Virus record (IMG/VR): IMGVR_UViG_3300005805_000044
Reading direction: 5' to 3' (one strand)
Length of the DNA stretch: 64,000 nt
Source: a virus
Positions 49,363-64,000 of the stretch are shown here, piece by piece. Position 1 is the stretch's first letter, and each line of letters starts with the position of its first letter. A model generated the notes under the pieces. The model made no database searches, was not told where the DNA came from, and saw only the letters and a program-made list of their open reading frames with translations. The translations under genes and the position numbers were made by a program.

Positions 49363-49747
49363 TGGTGGACGTGGCGAGAATCGAACTCGCGTCTTTAAGA
49401 ATTGAACCATACCAGACTACACGCTTTTACAATTTGAATTTGTTAGAAAGTAAAATCAAAATTGTCAAAAATTTACTTCTTAAGATTTACATAAATTTCG
49501 ATTGGAAGAGCAAATCAATCAACCAACCATAGTCCGATGATGACGTTTGTTTAACTATCGAACAATCATTAAACAAACGAACAACCTTTTATTAGGCTGC
49601 AATTGCTACGACATCATCATAAGAAAAGTCATAGCTAACTACGTTTTCTTCAGCAGTTATGTTTTGATAGACATTTAAAGAGGCCAACTATCATCCTCTG
49701 CGTGACTGACATGGACACATTTCTTAAATCGAAACCTGAACACGCCC
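49363..49747 (-). ncRNA. ssrA: tmRNA; tag reading frame 49654-49592 encodes AEENVVSYDFSYDDVVAIAA*
   Basis: 5' GGGCGUG pairs with 3' CACGUCC-A-CCA with G3:U Ala identity pair; GGUUUCGA D-like loop; GUUCGAUUC T-loop; resume codon GCU after AUAACU; tag ends in AA. Confidence 0.93.
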
Positions 49748-49863: not shown

Positions 49864-49937
49864 TGGAGCGGGTAGTGAGAATCGAACTCACACGTAGGCT
49901 TTGGAAGAGCCTCAGGCTACCATTACATCATACCCGC
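49864..49937 (-). tRNA. tRNA-Gly(TCC)
   Basis: Cloverleaf, loop CTTCCAA, encoded CCA. Confidence 0.93.
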
Positions 49938-50119
49938 GTATTGTTTATAGTCTACAATAATAAATAGAATGGTCAAGACTAATATATCAATGATCAAAAT
50001 TTATTTAAATACTCATAAAATCAACCCTATCCTATCTGGAACAGATTCGTCCGGGTCAGACATACAGGGGTGTATCGTGTCCCTCACGCCGTGGCTAAAC
50101 CACCACAAGATTTATAAAT

Positions 50120-50243
50120 TGGATGACCGTGACTTGCGAATATACGAGGATTTCACTAAGCGTTCCAAATGTCTCTCTCGTCAACTTCAGTCTCCTATAC
50201 CCTCCTACGGGTATCGTGCTATAATTCTATACACTAACAATCA
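50120..50243 (-). ncRNA. Expanded tRNA-like RNA (T-loop replaced by ~50-nt stem-loop)
   Basis: 7-bp acceptor TGATTGT/ACGGTCA, T-CCA end, TA linker, D-arm GTGT/GCAC, ATACC/GGTAT arm. Confidence 0.6.
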
Positions 50244-50246
50244 AAA

Positions 50247-50322
50247 TGGTCGGGATGGAGAATTTCGCAATCTCAACCTCCTGTCTCCAAAACAGGCCGT
50301 CTACTTTTGACATTACATCCCG
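50247..50322 (-). tRNA. tRNA-Pro(TGG), atypical T-arm
   Basis: CGGGATG acceptor, loop TTTGGAG, T-arm lacks TTC, CCA. Confidence 0.8.
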
Positions 50323-50329
50323 AATAAAT

Positions 50330-50403
50330 TGGCAGGGGATAAGGGAATCGAACCCCTACAAGAAGATTCAAAGTCTTCCGCACTACCATTATGCAAATCC
50401 CCA
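50330..50403 (-). tRNA. tRNA-Gln(TTG)
   Basis: Loop CTTTGAA, GGTTCGATTCC, CCA. Confidence 0.92.
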
Positions 50404-50412
50404 GTTCTGAAA

Positions 50413-50529
50413 TTATTTCTTACGTTTGGAACCTTTTACATGAGTAGAATTAACTCTAACAGTTTTACCACTCTTGGTTTTCCTAGTATGCGTCTTTCTA
50501 TAGTGAGACGTTTTATATGATTTCGCCAT
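50413..50529 (-). CDS. Small basic peptide (38 aa)
   Basis: MAKSYKTSHYRKTHTRKTKSGKTVRVNSTHVKGSKRKK. Confidence 0.6.
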   Translation of the reverse strand: MAKSYKTSHYRKTHTRKTKSGKTVRVNSTHVKGSKRKK

Positions 50530-50549
50530 AGTTTTATTTTTTTTTAAAT

Positions 50550-50623
50550 TGGAGCGGGTGGAGGGAATCGAACCCTCTCATCGTCCTTGGCAAGGATGTA
50601 GGCTACCGTTACATCACACCCGC
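50550..50623 (-). tRNA. tRNA-Gly(GCC)
   Basis: Loop TTGCCAA, CCA. Confidence 0.92.
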
Positions 50624-50631
50624 GTTAAAAT

Positions 50632-50707
<76 letters not shown>

Positions 50708-50715
50708 ATATAAAA

Positions 50716-50807
50716 TGGCGGAAAGGGAGGGATTCGAACCCTCGGTGGGTGTTTAAGCCCACAACAGTTTAGCAAACTGTCTCTTTAGACCACTCAGACA
50801 CCTTTCC
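50716..50807 (-). tRNA. tRNA-Ser(GCT)
   Basis: Long variable arm, loop TTGCTAA, CCA. Confidence 0.95.
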
Positions 50808-50814
50808 GTAAAAT

Positions 50815-50904
50815 TGGAGGAAGGAGAGGGATTCGAACCCCCGGAGGCTTTTACACCCCTGCGGTTTTCAAGACCACCGCCTTAGACCACTCAGCCACCC
50901 TTCC
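50815..50904 (-). tRNA. tRNA-Ser(TGA)
   Basis: Long variable arm, loop CTTGAAA, CCA. Confidence 0.95.
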
Positions 50905-51003
50905 ATAAGGAATTAAAAACTGGGTATGTGTGACTACACCCGAAAGGTCAATTACACTCAATGATCATACGACCAAATATGATTTTAAAGTCACTTTTTA
51001 ATT

Positions 51004-51087
51004 TGGTGGGCATAGAGGGACTTGAACCCCCACGGATTTCTCCACGAGCTTCTAAGACTCGCGTGTCTGCCATTTCACCATACGCCC
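51004..51087 (-). tRNA. tRNA-Leu(TAG)
   Basis: Long variable arm, loop CTTAGAA, CCA. Confidence 0.93.
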
Positions 51088-51092
51088 GAAAT

Positions 51093-51170
51093 TGGTCGGA
51101 GTGATAGGATTTGAACCTACGACATCTTGCTCCCAAAGCAAGCGCTCTAGCCAAGCTGAGCTACACTCCG
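51093..51170 (-). tRNA. tRNA-Pro(TGG)
   Basis: Loop TTTGGGA, canonical arms, CCA. Confidence 0.95.
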
Positions 51171-51179
51171 ATATTAAAA

Positions 51180-51254
51180 TGGTAGGCGGGAAAGGGATCG
51201 AACCTCCGACAATCACGGTGTAAACGTGGTGCTCTACCACTGAGCTACCCGCCC
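51180..51254 (-). tRNA. tRNA-Val(TAC)
   Basis: Loop TTTACAC, CCA. Confidence 0.93.
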
Positions 51255-51293
51255 ATTTAAAAATTATTATTTTCTTAATCCAATTATCGCCAG

Positions 51294-60837: not shown

Positions 60838-61565
60838 ACAGATATCCAATTCATATCTTTTGTGCGTGGCCATCTGTTTTCCATTCCAAATTTTACTTTT
60901 TCATTTTCAAAACAACTAGATATATCTTTTATCTCAAGATCATCATATGATACACATAATTTGTTGACAAAAAATCCATTAAATCCGCTTGGTTCACATC
61001 CAACAAATACGTATTGATGTTTTAGTAAATTAATGTATGCTTTTAATGAAGCCCCACAATAATTTGGTCCTTCATAACAATCATAATTCCACGCACAAAA
61101 ATTTTTGATATTGGGAATTGTTATGGATAAGTCTGGACCAATAATATCTTGATACTCCAATACAATAATTGAAGCGGTAAATAAACTTTTATCTATTATT
61201 TCTTTCAATATCCAATAATCAATGCCATCTATATCCAGAGAAAATACATCATAATGATCAACTAAATTGTTTTCTACAAATAAATTAGCAATATTATCAG
61301 TTTCTAATTGTTTTTGAATAAATCTGTATGTGCAATTGTTATAAAATTCATGATTAAAAGAATGATGATTGTCTATCATTACTCCTTTAAAATTTTTGTT
61401 TTTTATTAAATTGGCTGTATTACACTCTGTTCCATCATATACCCCAATTTCAATGCAATTTTTATTTATAGTATTACATCTCGACAGTAAATATTCTATG
61501 ATACCATCCTCCCCATTTTGAGAATATATTTTGTTATAACATTTATTTAACATAATATTATTCAC
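60834..61565 (-). CDS. FkbM-like methyltransferase
   Basis: YSQNGEDGII, IEIGVYDG.ECNT, SLDIDGIDYWI, GASL, GFNGFFV. Confidence 0.8.
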   Translation of the reverse strand: MNNIMLNKCYNKIYSQNGEDGIIEYLLSRCNTINKNCIEIGVYDGTECNTANLIKNKNFKGVMIDNHHSFNHEFYNNCTYRFIQKQLETDNIANLFVENNLVDHYDVFSLDIDGIDYWILKEIIDKSLFTASIIVLEYQDIIGPDLSITIPNIKNFCAWNYDCYEGPNYCGASLKAYINLLKHQYVFVGCEPSGFNGFFVNKLCVSYDDLEIKDISSCFENEKVKFGMENRWPRTKDMNWISV

Positions 61566-61989
61566 CAGCCATTTTGAGTCTTACACATCTTATAACTTTT
61601 CTTGCTCTTTTAGATGCCTTTTGGGTCATAAATGCACGACCAGTTCCTTTTTTATAAGGCGGGGTTTTTCCTTTAGAAGTGTATTGAGCAGAAGTTACAT
61701 CAAGAATTTTGTTATCTTCGTTTTGAAGCCACCAATGTGATATGCCTCTATCGTCTTCCGCTTGGTGAGGTTTGAAAGTTCCTCTGAGTTTGGTAGACTT
61801 TAATAGATGATATAAAGCCTCTGTTGCTACATAACAATGACCAAACATTGGATTAGTAGCATTTTCTTCCCTATACTTTGGTTCCAATAATTCTGGTTCT
61901 AAACAACTTTTTATCTTGGATATAAGCATAGAAACTGTTGGACTTTTTATTTCCAACAGCATATCAACTAAACTAATAGATCTAATCAT
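61558..61989 (-). CDS. Conserved phage protein with Cys-His-Asp (transglutaminase/papain-like) triad
   Basis: GHCYVATEA, SHWWL, ILDVT..QY. Confidence 0.6.
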   Translation of the reverse strand: MIRSISLVDMLLEIKSPTVSMLISKIKSCLEPELLEPKYREENATNPMFGHCYVATEALYHLLKSTKLRGTFKPHQAEDDRGISHWWLQNEDNKILDVTSAQYTSKGKTPPYKKGTGRAFMTQKASKRARKVIRCVRLKMAGE

Positions 61990-62020
61990 ATTAATAAATA
62001 GATCATATATTTTGTTTTAA

Positions 62021-62865
62021 GCGTGAGATTACCGCCTAAATTGTTGACCTTTAGTTGTATTATACCTATCTTGCGGACAGGCTTCCCAACTTATCCACGA
62101 TTACGACTTGCGCCTATAATCGTATCCAACATGACTGCCTTTTTAGGGTTGTGGCTTATCAACCTTAACCTAGAACTATTCAACCTTCATCCATCCGTCT
62201 GCCTTCGACAGCAGTTAAGTCTTGCGGACACCGTTCAGACTCCGATTAACAACTAGTGTCTTGCGGACATTTCGTTGTCTGTGTTATCTTTCGACCACAG
62301 AGTTAAGTCACTTTCATCCTAGACAAACAACGACTTTGCGTTTTTGTATATATGAACTGGATTTGAACCAGCAACACATAGCTTTACATAGCTATTACTC
62401 TACCATTGAGTTATCATGCACCTAACAATGACGTGCGTTGTTTGTCGTTTCATATCCTTTTGGGATACAATATGCGACACGCCATTTGTGTTTCTCTTGC
62501 GGATACTTCACCGATTTTCAAGATTAAGTCCCTTGGTTGGCCTTTGGTCCTCTTTCTATCAATCTACATACGAGCATTTGATTGCGGTCTCACACCCGTA
62601 TCTTTGGCTTAAATCTTAATCTTGGATGTTTTGCTGTGAGCAGTGGTCGGCGGCGCCGTTACCGAATGTATGCCAGTGTTACCCACACACACTCTTTTTC
62701 TCACCATCGTCAGACATACCTCCACCTTTTGGATGAAGGTCACAGACTTTGCCATTTGCTTGAGTGTCCTAGTTGCCCAGGCGAGGATCCGTTAGGGGAT
62801 TACCTCTTTCATGAATATTACTACTCACTATCTTATATGGAGTTCAAGCACCCCAAATCTTTTTA
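62021..62865 (-). ncRNA. Large ornate ncRNA, GOLLD-like (~850 nt)
   Basis: No minus-strand ORF; GC-richer than flanks; recurrent GUCC-GCAA-GAC and other GNRA hairpins; next to a tRNA cluster; embedded tRNA-like domain; ends are approximate. Confidence 0.75.
62348..62420 (-). tRNA. Degenerate tRNA-like domain embedded in the large ncRNA (8-nt loop TATGTAAA, no CCA)
   Basis: Canonical D-arm ACTC-AATGGTA-GAGT and T-arm GCTGG-TTCAAAT-CCAGT; imperfect acceptor stem. Confidence 0.7.
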
Positions 62866-62878
62866 CTTACAAAGAACG
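62866..62878 (-). promoter_or_regulatory. boxA-like antitermination element CGTTCTTTGTAAG
   Basis: Matches the rrn boxA core (Y)GYTCTTT; lies between a hairpin leader and the ncRNA. Confidence 0.5.
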
Positions 62879-62955
62879 TTTGATGGATTCGGTTCCTAGT
62901 CACTCTTTTAAGTTGAGCTACAGTCTCAACTCCATCTAAATCTTATTGTTCATAC

Positions 62956-62984
62956 ATCTTATGACCGTCTTTCGGTTTTGTCAA
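62956..62984 (-). promoter_or_regulatory. Sigma70 promoter P2, TTGACA-N17-TAAGAT
   Basis: Consensus -35, 17-nt spacer. Confidence 0.85.
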
Positions 62985-63045
62985 CAACTTTTTGAATCTT
63001 TTTTCGATTCGTTCGTTGTTGAAATACGAACTTGATTGTCTTTAT

Positions 63046-63074
63046 ACTCTACATCAACAATCACTTTGTGTCAA
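63046..63074 (-). promoter_or_regulatory. Sigma70 promoter P1, TTGACA-N17-TAGAGT
   Basis: Consensus -35, 17-nt spacer. Confidence 0.75.
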
Positions 63075-63088
63075 CTACTTTCTTAAAG

Positions 63089-63166
63089 TGGCACACCCGG
63101 CAGGATTCGAACCTGCAATCTTCTCGTTAGAATCGAGTTGCTTTAGTCCAGTTTAGCTACGAGTGC
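63089..63166 (-). tRNA. tRNA-Arg(TCT)
   Basis: Loop ATTCTAA, CCA. Confidence 0.9.
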
Positions 63167-63173
63167 ATTAAAA

Positions 63174-63250
63174 TGGTAGGGTAGAGGAGATTCGAACTCC
63201 TGACCTTCTGTGTGTAAAACAGACGCTCTCCCGAATTGAGCTACCACCCC
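63174..63250 (-). tRNA. tRNA-Val(TAC)
   Basis: Loop TTTACAC, CCA. Confidence 0.92.
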
Positions 63251-63261
63251 GTTATATAAAA

Positions 63262-63335
63262 TGGTAGGCAATCACGGTTCCGCCCCGTGGTCTTTCGATT
63301 ATCAGTCGAATGCTCTACTATTGAGCTAAATGCCT
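63262..63335 (-). tRNA. tRNA-Ile(GAT), atypical T-loop
   Basis: Loop CTGATAA, T-loop GGCGGAA, CCA. Confidence 0.85.
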
Positions 63336-63342
63336 ATTGAAA

Positions 63343-63419
63343 TGGCGGGACTGGTGGGATTTGAACCCAACTTTCTTACCGTGACAGGGTAAGCGATGAT
63401 GCCATTCTCTTACAATCCC
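63343..63419 (-). tRNA. tRNA-Asp(GTC)
   Basis: Loop CTGTCAC, G73, CCA; weak D-stem. Confidence 0.87.
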
Positions 63420-63510
63420 AAAAAATTGGTGCTGTGCTCTCCACGCCGTCTCTGTGTTTTACCAAATCTACCGGTCGGCAGTCACTTATGGGGTCAGTTA
63501 CCCATTAAAT

Positions 63511-63585
63511 TGGTAGGGCTCTACGGTAACGATCCGTATTCTACTGGTTAAAAGCCAGTTGCTTCACCGTTAAAGCTTGAACCCC
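63511..63585 (-). tRNA. tRNA-Lys(TTT), atypical T-loop
   Basis: Loop CTTTTAA, T-loop ATCGTTA, CCA. Confidence 0.85.
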
Positions 63586-63593
63586 ATTGAAAT

Positions 63594-63709
63594 TGGTGAT
63601 CTAGGTATGGACTTTAACCATACATTCACTGCTTTCGTTTCGGATTGATTACCGTATCCAGCAGCCCTGCGTTTAAATTTCGCCCGATCTTGCGTTGATC
63701 TACTAGATC
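63594..63709 (-). ncRNA. Expanded tRNA-like RNA (extra hairpin plus enlarged anticodon arm)
   Basis: GATCTAG/CTAGATC-A-CCA; T-arm GTATGG-TTAAAGT-CCATAC; CTGCT/AGCAG arm enclosing about 26 nt. Confidence 0.6.
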
Positions 63710-63718
63710 ATCATAAAT

Positions 63719-63796
63719 TGGTGGACCGGGTGGGATTTGAACCCACAACCTTTCGGGTAAGAGCCGAATACTCTAATCCAGTTGAGTTACCGATCC
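63719..63796 (-). tRNA. tRNA-Lys(CTT)
   Basis: Loop CTCTTAC, canonical T-loop, CCA. Confidence 0.92.
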
Positions 63797-63923
63797 ATAA
63801 ATTAACTTGAGCGGGATATCTCGTAGTTATGAGACCATTACGGATTTTTTATACCCGGAAAAAAAGAATATCTTCTTTAGATCCTTATGGAACCGATTGA
63901 ATCTTTCATACGCCACTCAAAAT

Positions 63924-64000
63924 TGGTGGAAGTGGTGGGTACTGCCCCCACACGAATATTCTGATTAAGAGTCAGATGCCCGTCTATTGTAGCTTCACTT
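63924..64000 (-). tRNA. tRNA-Lys(CTT), atypical, 5' end cut by window edge
   Basis: Loop CTCTTAA, T-loop GGCAGTA, CCA. Confidence 0.78.

Follow-up and report, generated by a model that had tools for sequence, protein, structure and literature searches.

The stretch of DNA analyzed here (the window) comprises 64,000 nucleotides of the IMG/VR virus record IMGVR_UViG_3300005805_000044, a contig of a freshwater jumbo phage whose genes within the window all lie on the minus strand. It contains matches to virion proteins and a tRNA island with 19 free-standing tRNAs and one tmRNA, as detected with Rfam models and ARAGORN, and within this island lies the gene of a giant RNA of the GOLLD family, a phage setting that fits this family. 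The nearest records are likewise viral contigs, each of ~60 kb and estimated at 19-20% of a genome; the nearest of all (G001) does not extend over the GOLLD RNA. Metagenome runs that contain the stretch carry the habitat labels of lakes and rivers. The features of the GOLLD locus are as follows:

62020..62877, minus strand: whole GOLLD RNA gene, ~858 nt (block conserved with contig G002, RNA contigs)
62488..62877, minus strand: variable 5' domain of GOLLD (outside the Rfam model, conserved with G002)
62020..62487, minus strand: conserved 3' domain of GOLLD (Rfam RF02032)
62956..62984, minus strand: promoter-like site upstream of the RNA, TTGACA-17-TAAGAT, a consensus match only (10/12 positions), from a scan that yields no more sites than shuffled sequence
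62878..62942, minus strand: 65-nt leader segment, missing in G002 (pairwise alignment)
62436..62446, minus strand: 5' strand of the linker-closing helix, GACAAACAACG (pairing and covariation)
62322..62332, minus strand: 3' strand of the linker-closing helix, CGUUGUUUGUC (pairing and covariation)
62348..62420, minus strand: tRNA-shaped insert in the linker (Rfam tRNA model RF00005, 50.5 bits; ARAGORN 'tRNA-???')
62069-62076, 62220-62227, 62259-62266 and 62495-62502, minus strand: four copies of the hairpin-loop motif CCGCAAGA (sequence)

A sequence-only reading of this DNA had proposed a GOLLD-like giant RNA and a search with the corresponding Rfam model as the way to check it. This search bears the proposal out: RF02032, which represents only the conserved 3' domain of GOLLD, matches 62487..62020 on the minus strand with 208.2 bits (gathering score 150; E 2e-57), and the alignment runs end to end over model positions 1-416 of 416. 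The same reading had placed the element at 62021-62865 and had seen no sense ORF in it. The former is close to the block 62877..62020 that is conserved at 96% identity with the nearest relative, the IMG/VR contig G002 (locus L121); as for the latter, the largest minus-strand ORF inside the element has 48 aa and is the sole one of at least 40 aa. In pairwise alignment identity to G002 collapses on both sides of the block, the two sequences being unrelated immediately beyond 62020, and it is the span of this block that sets the length of the RNA at ~858 nt. Most substitutions relative to G002 fall in the 5' domain, into which RNA contigs extend as far as 62842. Thus, the element has the size (at least ~800 nt) and the organization of GOLLD, with a variable 5' domain, a linker and a conserved 3' domain. 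Its fold is more stable than that of shuffled sequence (z-score -3.5), and 9 of the 10 pairs of the pseudoknot in the GOLLD model form when the window is aligned to the model. A blastn search of GenBank phage records with the element gave no match. Both hexamers of the promoter-like site, TTGACA and TAAGAT, are conserved in G002, and the 65-nt segment between this site and the start of GOLLD carries an AGUUGAG/CUCAACU hairpin. On the minus strand after 62020 we found no intrinsic terminator; as one RNA contig continues at least 42 nt beyond 62021, into the flank of a G002-type variant, the 3' end of the RNA is not fixed.

Several other features of the island deserve mention. All 19 free-standing tRNAs of the window (49867-63796, minus strand) share a uniform 3' context, in which an encoded CCA is directly followed by (A)UUU. 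The tmRNA at 49363-49747 (minus strand; Rfam 131.9 bits) stands at the edge of a ten-tRNA array, and ARAGORN assigns it the tag peptide AEENVVSYDFSYDDVVAIAA. At a lowered threshold ARAGORN also reports a tRNA-Glu(UUC) at 63594-63709 (minus strand) whose anticodon loop is interrupted by an insert of 27 nt; L145, which carries a GOLLD insert identical to that of the window, has a tRNA (L145:6649-6807) that aligns with a 37-nt insert in the anticodon loop. A tRNA-Ile(GAU) at 63265-63335 and a tRNA-Thr(GGU) at 59237-59307 (both minus strand) have T-loops that deviate from UUC and were detected by the Rfam model and missed by ARAGORN at default settings. The inter-tRNA spacers 63420-63510 and 63800-63960 (minus strand) are free of tRNA calls, and at 63845-63951 there is an alpha-tmRNA-like match too weak for the cut-off (E 0.005). 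The ORF at 56149-56820 (minus strand) encodes a protein that carries a prepilin methylation motif at its N terminus and weakly matches DUF1559. Prepilin- and DUF1559-type proteins are frequent in Planctomycetota and Verrucomicrobiota, and the host is hence possibly a bacterium of the PVC group.

The four copies of CCGCAAGA pointed out in the sequence-only reading are all present at the places given there, and the motif is markedly enriched, with 6 copies in the whole window against 0.62 expected (0/100 shuffles reach 6). Those at 62220-62227 and 62259-62266 coincide with GCAA hairpin loops in the GOLLD model; the copy at 62069-62076 sits in an insertion within another hairpin loop of the model. 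The same reading had described a helix flanking the insert. This helix is perfect: GACAAACAACG (62446..62436) and CGTTGTTTGTC (62332..62322) form 11 bp that tie the linker, at its 3' edge, to the bulge in the first Rfam-model hairpin. In 28 distinct relatives 92% of its cells are paired, with changes on both sides in 9 of the 11 pairs. It is not special to the insert, covarying in GOLLDs with or without a tRNA shape: across 98 distinct viral GOLLDs picked by their 3' end alone, the majority of which have no tRNA shape, 95% of the cells are paired, with several pair types per position. Because of this distribution the 11-bp helix is to be regarded as a linker-closing element of GOLLDs in general and not as part of the insertion. 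An inspection by eye for a pairing partner of the conserved UAGGU motif before the insert yielded none.

The insert lies within the stretch that the GOLLD model treats as unpaired variable linker. Its parts are:

62420-62414 / 62355-62349, minus strand: acceptor, UGCAUGA/UCAUAUA
62411-62397, minus strand: D arm, ACUC-AAUGGUA-GAGU
62395-62378, minus strand: anticodon arm, stem AUAGC/GCUAU, loop UAUGUAAA
62383..62390, minus strand: anticodon loop UAUGUAAA, which departs from the standard in having 8 nt and A33
62372-62356, minus strand: T arm, GCUGG-UUCAAAU-CCAGU, with one G·U pair in the stem

An examination of these parts in light of tRNA anatomy showed that: 1) The elbow is intact, with a 4-bp D stem, GG in the D-loop, a 5-bp T stem and a T-loop UUCAAAU that fits UUCRANY; the variable loop is GUGUU. 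2) Six of the 7 acceptor pairs form, including a G2·U71 pair, and C3·A70 is a mismatch. 3) The anticodon arm can be read as 5 bp with an 8-nt loop or, with a sixth U-A pair, as 6 bp with a 6-nt loop, and neither reading provides the standard loop of an elongator tRNA (7 nt, U33, purine 37). 4) There is no encoded CCA, the 3' flank being UACAAAAA, and hence no regular 7-bp acceptor with a 3' CCA; CCA addition by a host enzyme is possible. In a minimum-energy fold, to which we attach little weight, the closing helix is formed, as are the hairpins of the D, anticodon and T arms, and the acceptor strands pair elsewhere. The tRNA-shaped domain at 62348-62420 described in the sequence-only reading is thus recovered by the tRNA model, its D and T stems good save for the G·U pair; the 8-nt loop and the missing CCA noted there are both in the sequence, with the 6-nt loop as the alternative if the stem has 6 bp.

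These features bear first on the view that the insert is a working tRNA that is co-transcribed with GOLLD, excised by RNase P and RNase Z, supplied with CCA by the host and employed in unusual decoding, such as four-base reading or resistance to an anticodon nuclease. The score on the tRNA model, the D-loop GG and the intact UUCAAAU are what such a tRNA would show, and either RNase could act on the insert because its acceptor is still 6/7 paired. Moreover, some GOLLD linkers hold standard CCA-bearing tRNAs (L037, L139), and published work has treated linker tRNAs as tRNAs. On the other hand, the loop has 8 nt with A replacing U33, sister lineages retain the C3·A70 mismatch, and CCA is absent in a phage in which 19/19 other tRNAs encode it. 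Together with the loss of the acceptor end across related GOLLDs and the RNA contigs that bridge both borders of the insert, as detailed below, these observations make a working tRNA improbable.

To place the insert among its relatives we gathered 120 viral GOLLD loci with a pattern for the 3' end and measured linker lengths on a MAFFT alignment. The linkers are mostly 40-70 nt long and AT-rich, and tRNA shapes are confined to a few loci, namely L092 (the relative of the window), L035, L037 and L058, with a half-tRNA in L107. In blastn against these 120 loci the near-identical L092 was the sole match. Just upstream of two other GOLLDs, L025 and L123, ARAGORN reports suppressor-type tRNAs with the anticodons UUA and CUA; that of L025 lies ~730 nt before the GOLLD 3' end and that of L123 ~600 nt before the linker tRNA. 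The window belongs to a branch of lake-phage GOLLDs with a distinct signature, with GCACRUC-N4-5-UAGGU preceding the linker and GCAAAGU-N17-GAAAG following it, and this pattern of flanks alone, which places no requirement on any tRNA feature, was used to sample the branch. A pattern based on the T-loop, which had found 11 embedded tRNAs, was rejected for statistics in favor of the flank-only pattern, because it is biased to standard T-loops and cannot match the lineage of the window. With a tRNA-sized gap the flank pattern recovered 12 viral loci, 33 metagenome loci and 1 genome locus; with a gap of 28-58 nt it recovered a single viral locus, L173, devoid of a tRNA shape, and with a gap of less than 28 nt no viral locus. 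The insert is therefore present in 12/13 viral members of the branch and is close to universal in it, yet not obligatory, as the flank-only search gives tRNA-sized linkers with one exception. The linker of this exception (L173:3395-3491, minus strand) is ~50 nt long, and has either lost the insert by natural deletion or never possessed it.

The branch as a whole shows a sharp division between the parts of the tRNA shape that are kept and those that are lost. In the 28 distinct sequences of the comparison A2, the fraction of paired cells was: 1) 98% in the D stem; 2) 93.5% in the anticodon stem; 3) 95.7% in the T stem; 4) 90% in the four inner acceptor pairs; and 5) merely 44% in the three outer acceptor pairs. 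Both partners have changed in 27 of the 32 pairs overall; 0/500 shuffles attain the observed values. We then compared embedded copies with free tRNAs of the same contigs by re-aligning 33 distinct embedded copies and 68 distinct free tRNAs with the covariance model R1 (linker and insert). A fully paired outer acceptor was seen in 2/33 embedded copies vs 65/68 free tRNAs (p 3e-20), CCA after the acceptor in 4/33 vs 61/68 (p 1e-14) and a 7-nt loop with U33 and purine 37 in 23/33 vs 66/68 (p 2e-4), p-values that overstate independence, the sequences being related to one another, and that refer to a free-tRNA control which, as the top-scoring set of the model search, leans to well-formed tRNAs. 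The D stem (32/33 vs 66/68) and the T stem (30/33 vs 65/68) are fully paired in nearly all members of either set. Anticodon loops of 8 nt occur in five embedded copies, those of the window, L131, L146, L150 and L127, and U33 is missing in four further ones (L147, L149, L161 and L164); L037 and L139 look fully standard, with CCA. Some of the eroded acceptor ends, for instance that of L131, may still pair with a bulge. Hence the statement of the sequence-only reading that the elbow is kept and decoding lost is true of the window copy and, statistically, of the whole lake-phage branch.

Branch-wide covariation could partly reflect replacement of the insert by different tRNAs, which would mimic maintenance, and for this reason a test within one orthologous lineage is to be preferred. 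L138 and L159 are orthologs suited for this purpose: their flanks, anticodon stem and variable loop are those of the window, as is the acceptor sequence with its C·A mismatch, and CCA is absent from all three. Against this shared background there are three compensatory double changes, one in the D stem (pair 10-25, A-U in the window vs G-C) and two in the T stem (pair 50-64, C-G in the window vs U-A, and pair 51-63, U-A in the window vs C-G); L134 and L136 add two double changes in the anticodon stem. The sister anticodon loops have 7 nt with U33 and UGU, namely CUUGUAC in L138/L159 and UUUGUAC in L134/L136, and the loop of the window is therefore derived, by a change of U33 to A plus one added nucleotide. 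In L138:8577-8714 and L159:896-1034 the D loop is AACAGUA (G18 -> A) together with a T loop UGCAAAU (U55 -> G), which may represent a joint change of the elbow contact.

In 8 independent close pairs the substitution rate per site was 0.138 in the anticodon loop, 0.117 in the D loop and 0.125 in the variable loop, as against 0.031 in the stems. The anticodon loop did not evolve significantly faster than the other loops (p 0.06), and we accordingly read it as relaxed rather than diversifying; in its substitution pattern it behaves as an unconstrained loop, the opposite of that of a decoding tRNA. An individual instance of loop change is offered by L125 and L130, whose 125-nt linker regions are one base apart, at the third anticodon position (UGG, Pro, vs UGA, Ser).

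These comparisons also speak to the idea that the insert is a neutral relic, that is, a tRNA gene that was once inserted into a disordered linker able to tolerate it and has since been decaying, without a role of its own. The variability of the linker and its lack of resolution in cryo-EM suit this idea, as does the occurrence of L173 and most other GOLLD clades without a tRNA shape, and erosion is indeed seen in the anticodon loop, at the acceptor end and in the CCA. Neutral decay, however, does not predict stems that remain 93-98% paired, compensatory double changes between degenerate orthologs (the window vs L138 and L134), or an insert in all but one of the viral branch members; furthermore, RNA contigs that differ from the window at 28 positions elsewhere in the element have 0 variants in 62320-62524. 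We therefore regard a neutral relic as unlikely.

The stretch was found in 20 public runs from 11 studies, 7 of these runs being RNA libraries, and contigs of four RNA libraries (from four studies) were placed on 61300-63500. These contigs cover only 62021-62842, with a depth of up to 39 in a library of 43 million letters; the flanks 61300-62020 and 62854-63500, including their ORFs and tRNAs, have no RNA-contig coverage, which is a weak indication in itself. The sequence-only reading had named covariation and a transcript as what separates a non-coding RNA from none, and both are found, in the covarying stems of the insert and in library contigs confined to the element. In each of the 4/4 runs one contig bridges 62348-62420 without a joint. 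Uncut RNA running through the insert thus exists, and as contigs cannot show ends, strand or nicks, a cleaved fraction is possible beside it.

This evidence weighs on the proposal that the insert is a processing signal, at which tRNA-end enzymes nick the RNA while the halves are held together by the flanking helix. tRNA punctuation and mascRNA are examples from other RNAs of tRNA-like structures that act as cleavage signals, the 11-bp linker-closing helix could keep such halves together, and the acceptor of the window is nearly intact. The proposal is weakened by the RNA contigs, which cross both borders of the tRNA shape unbroken in all four libraries, and by the loss in most branch members of the outer acceptor pairs that RNase P needs. 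We hence consider it very unlikely.

Taken together, the most likely reading of the insert, to which we would assign a probability of roughly 0.68, is that it is a built-in tRNA-shaped module inside the GOLLD cage, structural or serving in recognition on the inner face, rather than a tRNA that is released. The gene of ~858 nt, read from the minus strand, lies among the tRNA genes of a large freshwater phage. From the solved GOLLDs, its RNA is predicted to fold into separate 5' and 3' domains and to assemble into an RNA-only cage, with the variable linker between the domains facing the interior; any binding role of the RNA would be putative. In this linker the tRNA-shaped domain would be held in a loop closed by the conserved GOLLD helix. 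It descends from a tRNA, the Thr-like UGU loop being still seen in the nearest sister lineages, and selection has probably preserved its shape and not its decoding. Compensatory changes appear to maintain the inner acceptor pairs along with the stems of the D, anticodon and T arms, whereas decay is free to proceed at the acceptor end, in the CCA and in the anticodon loop. The insert would stay covalently in the giant RNA, such that each chain contributes one tRNA-shaped module to the inner face of the cage. For the cage as such it is dispensable, given that L173 lacks it and most other GOLLD clades have AT-rich linkers.

A module of this kind might serve as a bait or decoy, the many copies per cage holding a factor that recognizes tRNA, such as a host anticodon nuclease, RNase P, a modification enzyme or the ribosome. 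Phage tRNA anticodon-loop changes that defeat host nucleases are an idea from the literature, the elbow and the anticodon stem are the parts retained here, and the RNA lies within a phage tRNA island; ribosome binding of GOLLD has been reported from pull-downs. Yet the linker faces the cage interior in cryo-EM of other GOLLDs, so that a module said to be 'displayed' would need rewording, and the anticodon loop varies like an unconstrained loop, unlike a recognition site. As put here, a decoy is the least probable of the explanations considered. A bolder extension of the built-in module would have the linker tRNA as a permanent fixture throughout the branch, 10 to 14 copies lining each cage and together forming a multivalent mimic that sequesters a tRNA-recognizing host factor (nuclease, RNase P, modification enzyme or ribosome). 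This extension is unlikely as matters stand; if true, it would provide the first concrete and testable function for GOLLD. To our knowledge, GOLLD cages have solved structures and no known function, and the linker tRNA is among the few clues to the latter.

RNA-only cages of 10 to 14 chains are known from cryo-EM of other GOLLD members, and GOLLD was described as a 14-chain cage with the linker unresolved in the interior by Kretsch et al. (bioRxiv 10.1101/2024.12.08.627333); a 2026 review (PMC12990946) lists the env-38 14-mer (PDB 9MEE) and a Streptococcus agalactiae 12-mer (9L0R). The element of the window resembles the GOLLD family of RF02032 in its full model match, its length of ~860 nt, its variable 5' and conserved 3' domains, its location in a tRNA island, its GCAA loops and its closing helix. 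It differs from other viral GOLLDs in being too distant from them for blastn, save for species-level relatives, and in belonging to a lake-phage branch of its own. Two precedents exist for the tRNA shape. The first is provided by GOLLDs with a tRNA in the J13/15 linker, those of Kretsch et al. and of Mycolicibacterium, the latter with a tRNA-Phe for which the same review gives a proposal of 'inhibited storage'. The tRNA shape is at the same place there, in an interior-facing linker; unlike in these cases, the element of the window is not a standard tRNA, having an 8-nt loop, no U33 and no CCA, and such erosion is the rule in its branch. The second is the GOLLD of Mycobacterium aubagnense, in which Behra et al. 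2019 (PMC6582537) predicted a pseudo-tRNA and saw no separate product on Northern blots, a result that agrees with the unbroken RNA contigs found here. In that case the setting is a prophage-like tRNA cluster in an actinobacterium, in contrast to the freshwater jumbo phage of the window, and the family-wide comparison made here is absent from that study. A literature search for 'GOLLD' together with 'tRNA-like' returned nothing that links the two in a relevant way.

Hence, with linker tRNAs and one GOLLD pseudo-tRNA already published, the layout of a GOLLD with a linker pseudo-tRNA is known, and the window is new in detail alone. What is new is comparative: a near-constant insert, retained in library RNA, with a body that is maintained and with decay of the acceptor end, the CCA and the anticodon loop. 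In the lake-phage branch the tRNA shape thus appears to be selected for its body and not for its decoding end, and it stays in the transcripts of lakes and rivers. This pattern narrows the field of hypotheses: it argues against a simple 'tRNA storage and release' in the present branch and points instead to recognition of the shape.
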